Positions 7,137-43,827 of a DNA stretch of 64,000 bases are shown one piece after another. The notes under the pieces were generated by a model. It ran no database searches. It was not told the origin of the DNA and saw nothing but the letters and a program-made list of their open reading frames with translations. A program made the translations under genes and the position numbers. The DNA lies in contig CAWJAN010000005.1 in the NCBI GenBank assembly GCA_963840885.1, forward strand, positions 12,887 to 76,886, given 5' to 3'. Every line of letters begins with the position of its first letter. The stretch's first letter is position 1. The stretch comes from an uncultured bacterium. GTDB lineage: Bacteria; Patescibacteriota; Minisyncoccia; Phycocordibacterales; GWA1-40-21.

Positions 7137-7294
7137 ATTTAAGTAAATAAATCTCCATCAGAGATTCATCTCACCGATTAAGCGTAAATGTTCAAATGTC
7201 GCAAAATCTGTGCGACATTTTTACATTTAATAAACTAATGCCTGTCTAAAATGATAGGCCAAAAAGCGGAAAAAAGCCGCTTTAAAACATCAAT

Positions 7295-8692
7295 ATGCGC
7301 AGAGTAATAAGGAATGTCGGATCTTTTGACAGATTCGACAATAAGAAATCCGGAAAATTCGGATTGCACAGAAAAAGCATAAGAGGCTCGGAATCAAAAT
7401 CCCGTGCTGATTTTGCAAGCAATAATCCTGGAAACGGACCGGCTCAGGCATCAGGTTCCTTTTCAGGAACAAGATACGGACACGGAAAACCTTCATTCGG
7501 TGGAAACAGGTTTTCCCGCGGATCAAGCTACGGAAAGCCGTCATTCGGCGGAAGAGGAGGATTTTCTAGGAACCGAAGAGGAAATGACGGATCAAATATC
7601 CATTTCTCAAAATTTATAAATAAGGCTGTTATCACAGAGGAAGTTTCAAAATTCGTTCCGGAACACCTTTTCAAGGATTTCAACATAGATGACAGGCTCA
7701 AGGCAAATATTTTTGCCAAGGGATACAATGAACCGACTCCGATTCAGGACAAGATAATTCCTCATGTGCTCAGGGGATCTGATGTCGTTGGCATAGCGAA
7801 TACGGGAACTGGAAAAACAGCCGCATTTCTCATACCACTCATACAAAAAGTCCTAATGAATCCAAAAGAAGAAATTCTTATCGTGGTTCCTACGAGAGAG
7901 CTGGCCCAGCAGATAGAAAGCGAACTCAAGAGCTTTACGGAAGGAATGAAAATATTTTCCGTATGCTGCGTCGGAGGCGCTCCTATAGGCAGGCAGATTT
8001 CAATGCTTAAGTATTGGAATAACTTCGTAATAGGAACTCCAGGAAGACTTAAGGATTTGGTAAACAGAAAAGTATTAAATCTTAAACCATTTTCAACTAT
8101 AGTATTGGACGAGGCAGACAGAATGCTTGATATGGGATTTATTGCGGATATGAAACTCATAATGTCCCAGATGTCGGCAAAAAGGCATACTCTGTTTTTC
8201 TCAGCAACGATGTCTAGAGAAATAGAGCAGCTTATCAAAGAATTTTTAAATAATCCCACGACTGTTTCCGTAAAAACCGGTGATACTTCAAAATCAGTAG
8301 ACCAGGATGTCGTAAGAATGAACGGAAAAGAAAAGATAGACGTCTTGCACGAGCTTCTGAACAATCCGGAACTTTCTAAAGTCCTGATATTCGGAAGAAC
8401 AAAGCATGGCGTTGAAAGGCTTTCAAAAACCCTCACGGAAAGAGGGTTCAAAGCAGATTCGATACATGGCGACAAAAACCAAGGAGCGAGACAAAGGGCT
8501 CTCGGCAAATTCAAAGACGATCATATAAAGATTCTTGTTGCTACAGACGTAGCCGCAAGGGGGCTTGATATACCCGATGTAACTCACGTAATAAACTATG
8601 ATATACCTGCTACATACGAAGATTATGTCCATAGAATAGGCAGAACCGGACGCGCTAACAAGAAAGGAAAAGCTCTGACATTCATAGGATAA
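7295..8692 (+). CDS. DEAD-box ATP-dependent RNA helicase with a ~120-aa N-terminal RGG/FGG-rich low-complexity extension
   Basis: Q-motif, AxxGxGKT (GTGKTAAF), DEAD, SAT and HRIGRTGRA motifs. Confidence 0.85.
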   Translation: MRRVIRNVGSFDRFDNKKSGKFGLHRKSIRGSESKSRADFASNNPGNGPAQASGSFSGTRYGHGKPSFGGNRFSRGSSYGKPSFGGRGGFSRNRRGNDGSNIHFSKFINKAVITEEVSKFVPEHLFKDFNIDDRLKANIFAKGYNEPTPIQDKIIPHVLRGSDVVGIANTGTGKTAAFLIPLIQKVLMNPKEEILIVVPTRELAQQIESELKSFTEGMKIFSVCCVGGAPIGRQISMLKYWNNFVIGTPGRLKDLVNRKVLNLKPFSTIVLDEADRMLDMGFIADMKLIMSQMSAKRHTLFFSATMSREIEQLIKEFLNNPTTVSVKTGDTSKSVDQDVVRMNGKEKIDVLHELLNNPELSKVLIFGRTKHGVERLSKTLTERGFKADSIHGDKNQGARQRALGKFKDDHIKILVATDVAARGLDIPDVTHVINYDIPATYEDYVHRIGRTGRANKKGKALTFIG

Positions 8693-36537: not shown

Positions 36538-36565
36538 AACCCCGCAAAATCTGCGGGGTTTCTTA
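36537..36565 (+). terminator. Rho-independent terminator
   Basis: AACCCCGCA-aaatct-GCGGGGTTT followed by a T tract. Confidence 0.6.
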
Positions 36566-36579
36566 ATATGAACGAAAGT

Positions 36580-36876
36580 TCAATTCTTGAAAGATTTGTA
36601 AAAAATCTTCAGGAATCTGAAAATGGTCCAGGAGCCAATGCAATAGCCGAAATTATACCAGCCGCCATTGTTATGGATTTCATATATCCCGACTTTGTCG
36701 GAAAAAAGCGAGATGATGAAAGCGACAGGCATTATGAATCCCTGCCACAAGCCATGCCAGAAACCAGCGATCTCGCAATTTGAATTGATGTAGCCTGTCA
36801 CATAGTCATGATCGGCAGCACATCCGCTTGAGAACAGAATATAAATGCATAGAGCAATCAGGCTTAATTTGAGCAT
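36580..36876 (-). CDS. Small lipoprotein (lipobox LFSSGC)
   Basis: SD GGAGGC 7 nt upstream. Preferred over the overlapping plus-strand ORF 36568-36783. Confidence 0.5.
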   Translation of the reverse strand: MLKLSLIALCIYILFSSGCAADHDYVTGYINSNCEIAGFWHGLWQGFIMPVAFIISLFSDKVGIYEIHNNGGWYNFGYCIGSWTIFRFLKIFYKSFKN

Positions 36877-38227: not shown

Positions 38228-38256
38228 AAAAACCGGGCTAAACGCCCGGTTTTGAC
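38228..38256 (+). terminator. Rho-independent terminator
   Basis: AACCGGGC-taaac-GCCCGGTT followed by a T tract. Confidence 0.6.
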
Positions 38257-38280
38257 ATTATATTTTTTACGTGTTAATAT
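38252..38280 (+). promoter_or_regulatory. Sigma70-like promoter TTGACA-N17-TAATAT for paralog A
   Basis: Hexamers were read directly from the sequence. Confidence 0.4.
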
Positions 38281-38321
38281 TATTATTGGAACATGTTTCA
38301 TATCAATTATGGAGGACTGTC

Positions 38322-38801
38322 ATGGCGGAAAACATCGGAATTCGTGAGTACATCGAAAAAAGATTAAATGCCTTAGAACCGATAGAAACTGCGCCCCGGC
38401 AATTTTCCCCGAATCAATGGGAAATTTTTATCGGGGTGATAACGAGCGAAAGGATTAAAAAAATATACCACTTGTCCAAAATTGTGCTTGGAGAGCTGGA
38501 GAAGCTTTCTTCAAGGCGCGATACGGCCATAAAAGATTCCATGAAAGAGGAAATCCGGCTGACATCATTTGATATAAACCGTCTTGATTGCGTCAAAAGA
38601 ATGCTTGATGCGGAATTCGAAGGGTCTTTGTATTACGAATTCCCGAAGATCAGGGATTATGCCGATTACGATCTCGGCATAGTCGTGCAAAAAGACTGGA
38701 AAGTAATTATATTAAAAAAGGAGATGATGGAAGCATTTTCTGAATTCATGATAGGGATGGAATTCAGGGAAAAATTCAGCGGCGGCTCATCAGTAAATTA
38801 G
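38322..38801 (+). CDS. Hypothetical protein, tandem paralog A (159 aa)
   Basis: SD GGAGGA 10 nt upstream of the ATG at 38322. It shares EIFIGVITSERIKKIYHLSKIVLGELEKL / DWKVIILKKE-type blocks with paralog B. Confidence 0.5.
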   Translation: MAENIGIREYIEKRLNALEPIETAPRQFSPNQWEIFIGVITSERIKKIYHLSKIVLGELEKLSSRRDTAIKDSMKEEIRLTSFDINRLDCVKRMLDAEFEGSLYYEFPKIRDYADYDLGIVVQKDWKVIILKKEMMEAFSEFMIGMEFREKFSGGSSVN

Positions 38802-38806
38802 CCATA

Positions 38807-38845
38807 TGCCGTTATTTACGGCCCGGAGAGAAATCTCCGGGTCTT
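38807..38845 (+). terminator. Rho-independent terminator (CCCGGAGA...TCTCCGGG)
   Basis: Hairpin followed by a T tract. It is nearly the same hairpin as the one at 39331-39372. Confidence 0.55.
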
Positions 38846-38865
38846 TTTATTTTTATAAAAAATAT

Positions 38866-38893
38866 TTGAAAATTATTTCATTAATGATAATAT
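38866..38893 (+). promoter_or_regulatory. Sigma70-like promoter TTGAAA-N16-TAATAT for paralog B
   Basis: Hexamers were read directly from the sequence. Confidence 0.4.
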
Positions 38894-38934
38894 TGCTTCC
38901 GGAAGTCGCAATTCTGGAACAGGAGGCGGAAAAA

Positions 38935-39330
38935 ATGATAACTCAGAAATATTTCAGTGAATTCCTGAAACGATTAACATCTATCGATCCGGATTTGTTT
39001 GTGCCGACGCAGGATATCATAAGCACGGATGCTTATTTCATAGGCATTATCAAAGATCCGGGAATCAAACAGGTTTACAGCTTTATCATGGAGCTTGAAA
39101 GAGAGCTTGAAGAAGCCATCAAATCCTCTCCGGAAAAAATAGAAAGGATAGAGTTTTTCATTGATGAATGCTGGCTTATATTCTGGGATTTTGCAAAAGT
39201 TGAATTCCCGCACATAAACAAAGTGCCAGAAGGCTCGGTATACATCTGCAGCGGATGGAAATTCGTTTTGGTTCCAAACGACGGACGAAAACCGGTTATG
39301 GCCAATAAGTTTCATCTTAATCAGAATTAA
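38935..39330 (+). CDS. Hypothetical protein, tandem paralog B (131 aa)
   Basis: SD GGAGGCGG upstream of the ATG at 38935. Contains AYFIGIIKDPGIKQVYSFIMELERELEEA / GWKFVLVPND. Confidence 0.5.
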   Translation: MITQKYFSEFLKRLTSIDPDLFVPTQDIISTDAYFIGIIKDPGIKQVYSFIMELERELEEAIKSSPEKIERIEFFIDECWLIFWDFAKVEFPHINKVPEGSVYICSGWKFVLVPNDGRKPVMANKFHLNQN

Positions 39331-39372
39331 GCATTCTGCCGGCCCGGAGATTAAACTCTCCGGGCCTTTTTA
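39331..39372 (+). terminator. Rho-independent terminator (GGCCCGGAGA...TCTCCGGGCC)
   Basis: Hairpin followed by a T tract. Confidence 0.55.
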
Positions 39373-39403
39373 ATATGAAGTTTTTTATGATATAAATACG
39401 CTT

Positions 39404-41200
39404 ATGAAATCGGACGAAATACGCGAAAGATACCTTAAATTCTTTGAAAAAAGAGGGCATAAAATAATCCCTTCGGCATCGCTTGTACCAGAAAATGATC
39501 CCTCATCTCTTTTTATAAGCGCAGGAATGCAGCCAATGGTTCCTTATCTGCTTGGTGCAAAACATCCGGCTGGCGTAAGGATAGTGGATGTCCAGAAATG
39601 CGTTAGAACAGGCGATATTGATGATGTGGGTGATAACCGCCACTGCACCTTCTTTGAAATGCTTGGAAACTGGTCGCTCGGCGATTACTTTAAAAAAGAA
39701 TCGATCGACTGGAGTTTGGAATTTATTACAAATAAAAAAGAAGGTTTGGGATTGGATCCGAAAAGGCTTTATGTCACGGTTTTCAAGGGCGAAGACGGAA
39801 TTCCGCGCGATGAAGAATCGATAAATATCTGGAAGGATACTTTTAAAAAACCTGGGATTGACGCGGAAGTGGCAGGTAAAGATGAATATATAAAAGACGA
39901 TATAAGAATTATTCCGCTTGGAAAAGATGATAATTTTTGGATTGCCGGAAATACCGGTCCATGCGGAGGAGACACTGAATTTTTTTACGATGTCCTGGGA
40001 AATGGAAAAGTTGAGGGTGATTTTCATGAATTGGTAAAATCCGGAAGAATCATTGAAATTTGGAATAATGTTTTCATGGAATTCAATAAAACTGCAGACG
40101 GCAAATATGAAAAGCTGGCAAAACCGAATGTGGATACTGGAATGGGACTAGAGAGAACGGCTGTTGTAATGCAAGGCAAGGATAATGTTTTTGAAACCGA
40201 TCTTTTCGAGCCTTTGATGTCTTACATTCATTCAAATTCTGAAAAATACGACGAAAGACTTGCAAGAATTGTTGCAGACCATATACGTTCCACAGTCTTC
40301 ATTATTTCTGACGGAGTAATGCCTGCAAATACAGAAGCGGGATACGTGCTCAGAAGAGTTTTGAGAAGAGCCATAAGATCGATAGATAATTTGAAACTTA
40401 AGGAAGAATCTATTTTTGATTTAGCCAAGATAGTTATAAAAAATTATTCCCATGCTTATCCGAGCCTGAAAACAAAAGAAAGCGAAATATTAGATGCAAT
40501 CAAAAAAGAAGATGCAAAATTCAGAGAAACTCTGGATAAGGGCCTAAAGGAATTCGAAAAAGGCACCAGTGCATTCGACTTGTTCCAGACCTACGGCTTT
40601 CCGCTTGAGATGACGCTTGAGCTGGCTATGGAAGAGGGAAGGCATATAGATGTGGATGAGTTTAACCGTAAGATGAAAGAACATCAGGAAATTTCTCGTG
40701 CAGGAAGCGAACAGAAATTCAAAGGCGGGCTTGCGAGCCACGGCGAGATGGAGACGAAATATCATACCGCGACCCATATGATGCTCGCGGCGCTTCAGAA
40801 AGTCCTAGGCGCGCCGATAGTCCAGAAGGGAAGCAATATCACTGCGGAAAGAATGCGCTTTGATTTCAACTGGCCGCAAAAGCTGACCAAAGAACAGATA
40901 AAAGGGGTGGAAGATATGGTAAATGAAAAAATCGCCGAGAAACTGCCGGTAGAAATGGTTGAGCTGCCGAAAGCCGAAGCGCAAAAAATCGCCACTACGC
41001 TCGCATTCGACCTTTCAAGCTACGGCGATATCGTAAAAGTTTATAAAATCGGCTATGTGCCGGAAATTGACAAAGCCTTCAGTATAGAATTCTGCGGCGG
41101 CCCGCATGTAAAAAATACAGGCGAGCTCGGGCATTTCAAAATCGCAAAAGAAGAGGCTGTAAGCGCAGGAGTAAGGAGAATAAAAGCTGTGCTTGAATAA
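39404..41200 (+). CDS. alaS: Alanine--tRNA ligase, short form (598 aa; catalytic, tRNA-recognition and editing domains present, C-Ala domain absent)
   Basis: N-terminal core FISAGMQPMVPY, editing-domain HxxxH (HTATHMM) and CGGPHV motifs. Confidence 0.85.
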   Translation: MKSDEIRERYLKFFEKRGHKIIPSASLVPENDPSSLFISAGMQPMVPYLLGAKHPAGVRIVDVQKCVRTGDIDDVGDNRHCTFFEMLGNWSLGDYFKKESIDWSLEFITNKKEGLGLDPKRLYVTVFKGEDGIPRDEESINIWKDTFKKPGIDAEVAGKDEYIKDDIRIIPLGKDDNFWIAGNTGPCGGDTEFFYDVLGNGKVEGDFHELVKSGRIIEIWNNVFMEFNKTADGKYEKLAKPNVDTGMGLERTAVVMQGKDNVFETDLFEPLMSYIHSNSEKYDERLARIVADHIRSTVFIISDGVMPANTEAGYVLRRVLRRAIRSIDNLKLKEESIFDLAKIVIKNYSHAYPSLKTKESEILDAIKKEDAKFRETLDKGLKEFEKGTSAFDLFQTYGFPLEMTLELAMEEGRHIDVDEFNRKMKEHQEISRAGSEQKFKGGLASHGEMETKYHTATHMMLAALQKVLGAPIVQKGSNITAERMRFDFNWPQKLTKEQIKGVEDMVNEKIAEKLPVEMVELPKAEAQKIATTLAFDLSSYGDIVKVYKIGYVPEIDKAFSIEFCGGPHVKNTGELGHFKIAKEEAVSAGVRRIKAVLE

Positions 41201-41266: not shown

Positions 41267-42448
41267 ATGTATGCAATGAGTATTTTTTCTTCCAAAAATA
41301 AATCTTCCTTATCTCTTGTTTTTGATTTGAGGGATTCATATGTCTCGATTGCCGCAATAAATTTCGTAAATGAAAGCAAGCCCGAAATAATATTATGTCA
41401 AAACTTTGAAATCAATCCGTCAAACCACGAAGATTACGGTAAATACACATCCTCCATGCTAAGTTCTGTAAAAGAAGGGATTCTGGCCGTTAGGAAAGAT
41501 CTGGCCAAAAAGGGAAGCAAAGAAAGCATAAGAAAATACCATTTCTTCATAGGATCTCCCTGGAGCGTTTCGGAAAGCAAAACCATAAAGATAATTAAAA
41601 ACAAAAAATTCGAAGTTACAAAAGAGATACTAGGAAAAATAGTCAGCGACGAGGAAGAAACGATAAAAAAGGATATGAGCACCAGCATAAAGCTGGAAAA
41701 CTGGAAAATCCTCGAAGAAAAAATCGTGGAGTTCAAGCTGAACGGCTATAAGGCAGAAAAGGTCTTCGACAAAAAGATAACCGAGCTCGAGGCCGAGCTC
41801 TTCGTCTCTTTCATTCCGGTAGAAGTCTATAAGGGCCTGTCAGATATAACTTCAGGCGGACATATAAAGACAACTATGAATTCGTCCATGCTTGCTTCAT
41901 ATATATTTTTTAGGGATCTTTATTCGGACAAAAATAATTTCATATGCGTGGATATAGGCAATTTCGTAACTGATATATTCTTCGTGAGAAACGATGTTAT
42001 ATCAGGAGCAGTATCTTTTCCGCTCGGAGAAAAAGATCTGATAAAAACCATGATGTCGCACGCCAAAATACCGGAAAGTTCGATAATGACATACATAAAT
42101 ATGATGTGCCACGGAGCCTGCGAAGAGGAAACCAAAAAAGAAACGAAGAGACTACTGAAAGAGAGCAAAAACATATGGCTGGAAAAGTTCAAGCTTGCTA
42201 TGTCGAAAATATCCTCGGAAACGGATATTCCAAAGAATATTTTCGTCATTGAAAATACAAATCTGGTAAGAGCCATGATGAAAGAGTTGTCTGACGAGGA
42301 TGTGAATATTATGGGAATGAAAATGGCTGTAGAACATATAAGCGAGGCGATGATAGACAATAATATCGAAAATGGAAAAGATTTTAAAAACGAGCCTTAT
42401 ATAAAGATAGATACGGTATTTTTGGATAAGATAATATTTAAAAAATAA
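41267..42448 (+). CDS. Actin-like ATPase-fold protein (FtsA/PilM-like), hypothetical
   Basis: Phosphate-1-like LVFDLRDSYVSIA and phosphate-2/adenosine-like FICVDIGNFVTDIFFV. The C-terminus (TVFLDKIIFKK) could be amphipathic. Confidence 0.4.
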   Translation: MYAMSIFSSKNKSSLSLVFDLRDSYVSIAAINFVNESKPEIILCQNFEINPSNHEDYGKYTSSMLSSVKEGILAVRKDLAKKGSKESIRKYHFFIGSPWSVSESKTIKIIKNKKFEVTKEILGKIVSDEEETIKKDMSTSIKLENWKILEEKIVEFKLNGYKAEKVFDKKITELEAELFVSFIPVEVYKGLSDITSGGHIKTTMNSSMLASYIFFRDLYSDKNNFICVDIGNFVTDIFFVRNDVISGAVSFPLGEKDLIKTMMSHAKIPESSIMTYINMMCHGACEEETKKETKRLLKESKNIWLEKFKLAMSKISSETDIPKNIFVIENTNLVRAMMKELSDEDVNIMGMKMAVEHISEAMIDNNIENGKDFKNEPYIKIDTVFLDKIIFKK

Positions 42449-42468
42449 AATTCAAACTTTTTAAACCC

Positions 42469-43827
42469 ATGGCTAGAAAAATAATACAGGACATCATAGT
42501 TAAAGATAAAAAAAACGACCATGCGTCGAAAAAGATCGAGGCCGAAAGGCATTTGTTTTTTAGGGAAAAAATATACGATAATAATGATGATGTATTTGCC
42601 AAAAAACTTAACGAGCTTAAAGATAAGGAGCATATGTTTGAAAAAAATGATGACTCGGAATTTCCTAAAGAAAAAGTTTCCAAAAACTCTGTTTATTTTC
42701 TATGGGCCCTTGGCTTTGCACTTATCGTCACAATAGTTTTCCTTCTGTCTTCTGTTTTTGCAACTGCAAAAATAATCATAACGCCGAAAAATACCGATTT
42801 AAGCATGAGTGATACATATACTGCAAGCGATAATAAAGATGCTGCCGGTCTTCATTATGAAATTATGACCGTGGAAAAAACGATGTCAAAATCCCTTCCT
42901 ACAAGCGGCGAGGAAAGCGTCGAAAGAAAAGCCATCGGAAAAGTCACCATATACAACAAATACAGCACCCAAACCCAGCGTCTGATAAACAATACGAGAT
43001 TGGAAACGCCTGACGGACTCATTTACAGGATAAGGGAATCTGTGGATGTTCCGGGAATGAGCGGTTCGACTCCGGGAAGCGTAACAGTAGATGTAATAGC
43101 CGATGAATCCGGCGACAAATACAATATGAATGTCAGCGACCTGAAAGGCGATTTCACGATTCCTGGATTTGCCGGCAGCCCGAAATTCGACGGATTTTTT
43201 GCAAGGATAAGTTCAGACATAACTGGTGGCTACATAGGAAATGTTAAAAGCGTATCAAACAATGATCTGACTGCCGGAAGAAACCAGCTGAAAAATGATT
43301 TGCAAACTGAACTCATAAAAGAAGTTTACGACCAGAAGCCGGACGGATACTTAATATTCGACAATAACTACTATACCGATATGAACGACCTGCCAGACAA
43401 TTCAAGCACTAGCGATTATTCCATCTCCGAAGACGGAACGATACATGCGATAATATTCAGCAGATCCGATTTAGCGGATTTCCTGGCAAAAAACAAGATA
43501 AGCGGTTTTGACGGATCAGAAGTCGATATCCTTCCCGGTGATGATTTCACTTCCTCAATTTCCGGCACAACGGCGCAGCCTTGGAACGAACATACTTTGA
43601 AAATAAGCTTTTCGGGAAATATCAAGATAGTCTGGGTTTACAATGGCGGCGACATAATAAGCGACATCGCAGGCCAGAATAAATCAGTAATACCGGCCAT
43701 TCTGGACAAATATAAGACTTCAGTGGAAGCGATAACTGCTAGCATAAATCCTTCCTGGGTAAAAACATTCCCCAAGAATCCTAAAAAAATAAGCATCGTT
43801 GACTCGGTTACGGGAAACTCCATATAA
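42469..43827 (+). CDS. Bitopic membrane protein with a ~70-aa cytoplasmic N-terminus, one TM and a ~350-aa extracytoplasmic domain. It is a possible partner of the actin-like ATPase
   Basis: TM segment YFLWALGFALIVTIVFLLSSVFA. Confidence 0.4.
   Translation: MARKIIQDIIVKDKKNDHASKKIEAERHLFFREKIYDNNDDVFAKKLNELKDKEHMFEKNDDSEFPKEKVSKNSVYFLWALGFALIVTIVFLLSSVFATAKIIITPKNTDLSMSDTYTASDNKDAAGLHYEIMTVEKTMSKSLPTSGEESVERKAIGKVTIYNKYSTQTQRLINNTRLETPDGLIYRIRESVDVPGMSGSTPGSVTVDVIADESGDKYNMNVSDLKGDFTIPGFAGSPKFDGFFARISSDITGGYIGNVKSVSNNDLTAGRNQLKNDLQTELIKEVYDQKPDGYLIFDNNYYTDMNDLPDNSSTSDYSISEDGTIHAIIFSRSDLADFLAKNKISGFDGSEVDILPGDDFTSSISGTTAQPWNEHTLKISFSGNIKIVWVYNGGDIISDIAGQNKSVIPAILDKYKTSVEAITASINPSWVKTFPKNPKKISIVDSVTGNSI

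Follow-up and report, generated by a model that had tools for sequence, protein, structure and literature searches.

The stretch of DNA analyzed here, referred to as the window, comprises 64,000 nucleotides (nt) of contig CAWJAN010000005.1 (assembly GCA_963840885.1) from an uncultured bacterium of the Patescibacteriota. Two short genes, termed A and B, lie there side by side between a gene for an SOD-like protein and alaS. Gene A (38322..38801, +) encodes a soluble protein of 159 amino acids (aa) with an isoelectric point (pI) of 5.4, and gene B (38935..39330, +) encodes a protein of 131 aa which, on the evidence given below, is a distant paralogue of A. An earlier reading of this DNA, made from its letters without database searches (the sequence-only reading), had placed both genes at these coordinates and had described them as a tandem, duplicated expression cassette rather than an operon. 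Both open reading frames (ORFs) are indeed present there and intact.

Each gene is equipped with its own predicted expression signals. Upstream of A, the terminator hairpin of the SOD-like gene (38229..38253, +; -16.9 kcal/mol, z -4.5) ends in a T-tract that merges into the -35 box of gene A (TTTTGACA), and this fusion of a terminator to a promoter is common to 5/5 lineages. The putative promoter of A (38252..38280, +) consists of TTGACA (38252-38257), a spacer of 17 nt and the extended -10 element TGT-TAATAT (38272-38280), and is followed by the Shine-Dalgarno (SD) sequence GGAGG (38311..38315, +), 6 nt 5' of the ATG. The putative promoter of B (38866..38893, +) comprises TTGAAA (38866-38871), 16 nt and the extended -10 element TGA-TAATAT, with the SD sequence AGGAGG (38921..38926, +) located 8 nt 5' of the ATG. 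The spacer between the two genes measures 133 nt and holds, in this order, a -20 kcal/mol hairpin with a T-tract, the promoter and the SD sequence. The public gene call for B (P0003) has 148 aa and starts at 38884, its ATG falling within the -10 box of B itself; this deposited start is probably 17 codons too early, because the SD-backed ATG at 38935 fits the N-termini of the orthologues in the related loci L006 and L007.

A promoter scan of the region returned 10 sites against 7.1 expected, which is not above chance, and the promoters are credited because they are conserved in relatives and not because of the scan. In fact, the arrangement TTTTGACA-N17-TGnTA[AG]TAT 5' of A is invariant, with equal spacing, in the window, L006, L001, L007 and L003, and is also found in L009; this invariance across five lineages holds while third codon positions differ at ~60% of sites. 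TGATAnnAT-type elements lie 5' of B in L006 and L007, where the alignment with the B promoter of the window is ambiguous, and AGGAGGCGAAAG is also found 5' of the L006 B homologue. The assignment of a promoter, an SD sequence and a terminator to each gene in the sequence-only reading is upheld in that the promoters and terminators were found by scan and the A promoter is kept in relatives. Given the near-consensus promoters and the strong SD sequences, A and B are probably expressed strongly and constitutively.

The terminators of the two units are the most similar pair within the window's set of predicted terminators. T1 (38820..38848, +), 18 nt 3' of the A stop codon, reads GGCCCGGAGA-gaaa-TCTCCGGGTC followed by TTTTT, and T2 (39341..39371, +), 10 nt 3' of the B stop codon, reads GGCCCGGAGA-ttaaac-TCTCCGGGCC followed by TTTTT, so that GGCCCGGAGA is common to both. 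They fold at -20.2 and -22.2 kcal/mol, respectively, each with a z of about -5 against shuffles, and with their GC-rich stem-loops, T-tracts and positions near stop codons both are predicted Rho-independent terminators. When candidates with a hairpin and a T-tract were listed across the 64 kb, their stems proved diverse. Among the 190 pairs that can be formed from the 20 predicted terminators of the window, T1/T2 ranked at the top with a score of 23 (next 17, mean 7.3, z 7.8), and exact occurrences of the 10-mer common to T1 and T2 are confined to these two hairpins. As a separate observation, the terminators at 7194-7220 and 36539-36559 of the window have in common an 11-nt string, CGCAAAATCTG, across stem and loop.

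The resemblance between T1 and T2 extends to relatives. Eight terminators behind A- or B-type genes align as one hairpin family with the core GCYCGRRG...CYYCGRGC and at least four T residues, and six of the 10 pairs in their consensus stem show compensatory double-sided changes. A degenerate pattern of this hairpin matches only sites behind A/B genes in the sequences covered (the 64-kb window, 16 kb each of L003 and L007, and short contigs). The near-identical hairpins noted earlier are thus homologous, and a count of copies elsewhere in the 64 kb yielded none beyond T1 and T2, so their likeness is not a genome-wide habit; a genome-wide terminator motif is likewise ruled out by the diversity of the other terminators in the window. 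Since the hairpin is specific to A/B loci, the terminator would have travelled with the gene since the duplication, which in turn supports the word "cassette."

The coding sequences, by comparison with one another, are much harder to relate. BLASTP of A against B yields 24.3 bits (E 4e-4) with 13 of 37 residues identical. The Smith-Waterman score of 65 lies above all of 2000 shuffles of B (2000/2000; mean 29.5), and shuffle tests of window A against window B give z values of 6.7-7.0. With profiles built after gathering orthologues of each gene, hhalign aligns A with B at a probability of 93.6% (E 2.1e-7) over 108 collinear columns, which amounts to nearly all of B. Furthermore, when all ORFs of at least 40 aa from the window and related loci were searched, the A profile had the three B proteins, and only these, as its best non-self matches, and the B profile the five full-length A proteins, and only these. 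Because of this profile homology, the reciprocal profile matches and, more tentatively, an equal predicted order of secondary-structure elements, A and B are judged to be true but distant paralogues, B being without ~16 residues of the second hairpin helix and without the C-terminal helix of A. The paralogy read from the sequence alone is borne out accordingly, and the blocks quoted in its favour do align (Smith-Waterman z 6.7). Across lineages, shuffle tests reach a z of at least 4.5 in 8 of 15 A-B pairs, and pairs from one genome do not stand out; these scores, which also served as a test for gene conversion between the coding regions of a genome, gave no sign of it.

Relatives of the two proteins are few. 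A word-indexed search of 5.8 billion proteins returned one relative of A and none of B, and an exhaustive profile search of 1.84 billion representatives returned four relatives of A. A metagenome scan with the first B alignment gave no match, while the same scan with the A alignment found L008 again. The A genes of the relatives lie in conserved synteny, with mnmA, an ATP-cone/Mrr-like gene, UDG, the SOD-like gene (Sod_Fe_C), A, alaS, two genes of unknown function, infA and ribosomal protein genes. The SOD-like proteins separate two sub-clades, with identities of 77-78% between the window and L006, 74-82% among L001, L003 and L007, and 53-63% between the clades. In L001 and L003, A lies directly between the SOD-like gene and alaS. 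L006 carries an A orthologue and behind it the terminator stem of the window (GGCCCGGAGA...), an SD sequence and a B orthologue which is cut by the contig end. In L007/L008, a full-length orthologue of B with 135 aa lies upstream of A and shares 40% identity with window B, and B is not at the locus in L001, L003 or L009. The description as a tandem pair is therefore accurate for the window and for L006, and fails for L007, where a gene stands between B and A, as well as for the three loci at which B is missing.

The presence of B in both clades (window and L006 on the one hand, L007 on the other) indicates that the duplication is ancient and predates the split of the two sub-clades, B having apparently been lost from the locus, or moved, in some lineages. 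This bears on the alternative of a recent, genome-specific tandem duplication of A after which B diverged very fast or is decaying. It would account for the near identity of T1 and T2 next to coding sequences in the twilight zone, for the higher score of window B with window A (z 7.0) than with A orthologues (z 1.6-2.7), and for the position of A directly 5' of alaS in L001, L003 and L009. However, the B orthologues of L006, in the same clade, and of L007, in the other, are intact ORFs with 39-40% identity to window B, and B shows the substitution pattern of a coding sequence. L007 B, moreover, scores far better with the A proteins of the window (z 6.8) and L003 (z 5.7) than with the A of its own genome (z 1.3), and there is therefore no general same-genome affinity. 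A recent origin of the pair is thus considered highly improbable.

The locus is also variable in gene content. In L007, the order is the SOD-like gene, B, a gene for a 239-aa signal-peptide protein, A, a 55-aa ORF, a 218-aa gene on the opposite strand and alaS. The interval between the SOD-like gene and alaS (L007 6413-9402, equal to L008) is thereby enlarged to five genes, and the 239-aa protein has a weak match to Gcw_chp; the site acts in L007 as a small hotspot for lineage-specific genes.

L009 shows a further arrangement. It has one terminator, which matches window T1 in its left flank (GTTTACGG) and is identical at 41 of 44 positions of its right flank to window T2 and the alaS promoter. 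In the window, the limits of the B unit of 521 base pairs (bp) coincide exactly with two direct repeats of the hairpin, and a terminator with a T1-type left side and a T2-type right side is the product expected if this unit were deleted between the hairpins. Recombination between the terminators as direct repeats may thus remove B; alternatively, the single terminator of L009 could represent the unduplicated state. In addition, positions 1-520 of this 907-bp contig contain an intact A promoter and an A gene without its N-terminal ~78 codons (85-aa ORF). Downstream of the terminator and an alaS-type promoter follows an ORF of 28 codons that is similar to the alaS 5' end (MQSGEIRETRQNL...) and whose TGA overlaps the real alaS ATG (ATGA). 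Either a scar left by a rearrangement or a coupled upstream ORF could explain this arrangement.

The exact bounding of the B unit by hairpins, the T1-left and T2-right terminator of L009 and the accumulation of other lineage-specific genes in the L007 interval would suit a second alternative, in which B is an unrelated foreign module of promoter, gene and terminator, of a moron- or cassette-like kind, that was inserted at the A terminator, the hairpin being duplicated as a target site and the similarity of A and B being fortuitous. Against this speak the profile-profile homology and the reciprocal profile matches of A and B, as well as the agreement of independent models of the two proteins in the position of the first helix and in the point where the hairpin begins (see below). 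B does not differ in GC content from A or from the flanking DNA, and a foreign island is ruled out on composition, which is not anomalous. Neither viral contigs nor phage genomes yielded relatives of A or B, and no recombinase occurs among the immediate neighbours (SOD-like, UDG, AlaRS). A foreign origin of B therefore seems very unlikely.

Within a genome, copies of the hairpin are more alike than orthologous copies are between clades. In addition to the shared GGCCCGGAGA of the window, both L007 copies start with AGTGCTCG[AG]G, and the hairpins of L001 and L003 carry AAGCCCGAG. This likeness may be maintained by gene conversion (concerted evolution) or by shared selection. It is also one of the observations that could point to a role of the hairpin beyond termination, as a family-specific cis element that serves as a site for a trans-acting factor (possibly A or B themselves, in autoregulation or mRNA stabilization) or for recombination by which the cassette is gained and lost. 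The hairpin has persisted despite a divergence of the proteins to 25-50% identity and of third codon positions to ~60% difference, and it is restricted to A/B genes among otherwise diverse terminators. Conversely, everything observed is compatible with a strong terminator of the ordinary kind that is maintained by purifying selection and occasionally subject to gene conversion: the element has a GC stem and a T-tract, it lies 10-18 nt after the stop codon, and the covariation keeps the pairing and not the sequence. Neither protein shows an RNA-binding signature (pI 5.0 to 9.4). Such a cis element is accordingly regarded as unlikely. A still bolder version, to which we attach very little weight, would see in A and B a family with an unseen fold, organized as self-contained promoter-gene-hairpin modules whose hairpin, specific to the family and co-evolving, functions beyond termination, either in 3'-end autoregulation through binding of A or B or as a recombination site. 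If it were true, a hairpin of the latter type would allow the module to be duplicated, moved (L007) and excised (L009), and the modules would then be analogous to cassette systems, except that they carry promoters, in an uncultured bacterium with a small genome.

Both genes evolve much faster than their neighbours. Between the window and L006, identity amounts to 48% for A, 39% for B and 77% for the SOD-like protein, and between L007 and L003 to 29% for A and 82% for the SOD-like protein. A comparison of L003 A (8001-8468) with L007 A (8001-8489) shows an unusually fast divergence of the L003 protein, in which a conserved Cys is lost and Trp126 is changed to Tyr; L003 thus combines a fast-diverging A with a genome in which B is not seen at the locus. 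The duplicate contigs available are almost identical, and polymorphism-based selection tests are uninformative as a result. The lack of any homologue of known function, the very small family and the L009 copy of A without its N-terminal half might be taken to mean that one or both ORFs are non-functional, either as pseudogenes or as spurious ORFs in AT-rich DNA. Yet full-length ORFs are kept in five A and three B lineages together with conserved motifs, length and expression signals, substitutions in A and B follow the coding pattern (codon position 3 > 1 > 2), and the structural model of A is reasonably confident. A non-functional pair is hence scarcely credible, and by its sequence neither copy is a pseudogene.

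The AlphaFold (AF2) model of A, computed from six sequences, has a predicted local distance difference test score (pLDDT) of 75.9 and a predicted template-modelling score (pTM) of 0.68. Its elements are H7-17, E35-39, H43-71, H75-106, E118-122 and E127-132 (H, helix; E, strand), to which a short helix and a low-confidence C-terminal helix are added. The fold would accordingly consist of a ~60-residue helical hairpin (~40 residues in B) with its base clamped in a sheet of three strands, one apparently contributed by the N-terminal and two by the C-terminal part. The single-sequence model of B (H7-17, H43-64, H66-83, E102-106 and E109-113; low confidence) follows an equal order of elements, with a helix at residues 7-17, a hairpin from residue 43 and a C-terminal beta-hairpin. 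Members of the family are soluble, without hydrophobic segments, and span the pI range given above. Conserved blocks (GEIVIGVIT-ER-KK, RLDCVKR-LDAEF-GSLYYEFPKIKDY and VQKDWKVVV) are located at the hairpin base and the strands, and the tip varies in sequence and length among members. This distribution suggests that the base forms the working surface and disfavours an active tip of the Gre/DksA type. As a tentative proposal, which we regard as possible but doubtful, A and B may constitute a soluble cytoplasmic interaction or oligomerization module forming homo-oligomers or A/B hetero-oligomers.

The statement of the sequence-only reading that no known domain is recognizable holds for all collections searched. 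No family reached its curated threshold for any A/B member in Pfam, NCBIfam, PHROG or PADLOC, searches of PDB sequences with the A and B profiles gave nothing significant, and Foldseek of the A model against PDB and BFVD returned no match at E <= 0.001. The Foldseek matches that were obtained are generic helical hairpins only (SerRS arm, GINS, ferritin-like and designed proteins), with E > 0.03. Sub-threshold domain matches are inconsistent and were discarded (pre-PUA_NIP7 in 2/6 members, phrog_7099 in 1/6, PDC-S21 and Pox_A_type_inc). The first of these, PF17833, touches residues 108-146, i.e., the beta-hairpin and the next helix, in two of six A-family members; however, its best score of 19.4 bits is below the gathering threshold of 23.1, ~40 of 80 positions are covered, and window A and all B proteins are unmatched. 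An apparent identity with HhH-GPD/EndoIII, suggested by L002 from a metagenome-assembled genome of the Acidobacteriaceae, the one ORF that a scan of genome contigs returned, is an artefact of the 8-mer seed DAEFEGSL: an A profile without the seed-bearing sequences scores the L002 ORF (5920-6687) at -0.9 bits, and the HhH-GPD fold is all-helical, whereas beta strands are present in the A model.

Taken together, A and B are likely to be independent monocistronic units which go back to an old duplication of the whole cassette. The duplication would have copied the promoter, the SD sequence, the gene and the terminator; the coding sequences would then have diverged, while promoters and terminators were kept and the terminators were homogenized within each genome. 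The earlier description of a duplicated expression cassette is therefore supported as far as the duplication is concerned and needs correction in that the event does not appear recent, B orthologues being present in both sub-clades. Its statement that the pair is not an operon agrees with the terminator and promoter found in the 133-nt spacer and relies, as before, on sequence signals.

Several points weigh against this reading or parts of it. The pairwise similarity of A and B in BLASTP is marginal, and in the library of 1.84 billion proteins B was not among the matches of the A profile at E <= 0.001. The B family was searched less thoroughly than the A family, the word-indexed search having missed the L007 B orthologue, and B relatives may thus be under-counted; the absence of B from L001, L003 and L009 refers to the locus, and B could sit elsewhere in these genomes. 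Promoter use, terminator efficiency and the independence of the two units are predictions, and the case for gene conversion in L007 relates to few shared bases. On the structural side, the B model is of low confidence (pLDDT 56), and the proposed function derives from one AF2 model (pLDDT 76) without a significant structural neighbour.

The surroundings of the cassettes offered some additional observations. The region is bounded downstream by the extended -10 element of alaS (TGA-TATAAA; 39388..39396, +), which lies 7 nt 5' of the ATG. The alaS gene is without an SD sequence, and in four lineages a conserved extended -10 element (TGnTATAAA or TGnTATATT) ends 6-7 nt 5' of its ATG (window 39388-39406; L001 2270-2300; L003 8520-8549; L007 9380-9404). 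The arrangement of the window is also seen in L001, L003, L007 and L009, which suggests that the alaS mRNA is leaderless and that its promoter abuts the preceding terminator. Two conserved genes 3' of alaS (window 41267-43827; 393 and 452 aa) have no Pfam match and are syntenic in L003 and L007. Upstream, a 98-aa ORF at 36580-36876 (-), likewise without a Pfam match, has a lipoprotein-like N-terminus (LFSSGC lipobox) and is the sole minus-strand gene in an otherwise co-directional run.

If the proposed history is correct, the locus provides a clean natural example of whole-cassette duplication in which the proteins have drifted beyond pairwise recognition. It adds a fast-evolving orphan family without a sequence or fold match, which an uncultured lineage keeps as a fixed part of a conserved housekeeping locus. 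In practical terms the gain is modest and consists of a corrected start codon for B and of family alignments covering five A and three B lineages, and the conserved promoter and terminator sequences may be usable as expression parts or lineage markers. The A/B locus opens no long-standing question.

Among known systems, phage "morons," as in HK97 and HK022, are extra genes that form a promoter-gene-terminator module between two conserved genes. B resembles them as an autonomous module between the conserved A and alaS which is absent there in some relatives. However, A and B reside in a bacterial housekeeping region of typical composition and have no phage or viral relatives, and B is a paralogue of its neighbour and not foreign DNA. 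Integron cassettes, too, consist of a short gene with an imperfect inverted repeat at its 3' side (attC), so that a repeat stands on each side and the unit is present or absent as a whole. In contrast to these, A and B carry their own promoters, the hairpin with its T-tract acts as a predicted terminator, neither attC-type R/L core sites nor intI were seen nearby (no formal attC model was run), and the neighbours are SOD-like, UDG, ATP-cone/Mrr and AlaRS genes. A toxin-antitoxin pair is ruled out, as the genes are paralogous, a terminator and a promoter lie between them and A occurs alone in L001 and L003; PADLOC and Pfam detected no toxin-antitoxin family for A or B. At the level of protein architecture only, a long antiparallel helical hairpin emerging from a small beta-sheet base recalls the "jellyfish" chaperones prefoldin and Skp and the Gre/DksA factors, as do the small size (130-160 aa) and solubility. 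Yet there is no sequence match to any of these, none is among the top 50 Foldseek matches in PDB, the catalytic acidic tip of Gre/DksA is conserved whereas the A/B tip is variable, and A and B are without the signal peptide of Skp.

The closest likeness is to ordinary tandem paralogues, where neighbouring homologous genes share a strand and each has -35 and -10 elements, an SD sequence and a GC-rich hairpin with a T-tract, the regulatory signals having been duplicated along with the gene. A and B depart from this type in that their coding sequences stand at the limit of detection, yet the terminators of the same genome are nearly identical, in that the hairpin type is restricted to the gene family and in that the pair is variably present and arranged among close relatives. 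The unusual points are thus the lack of a fold match and a family-specific terminator which is both conserved and alike within a genome. As a whole, A and B represent a new orphan family of very small size whose genetic arrangement is familiar.

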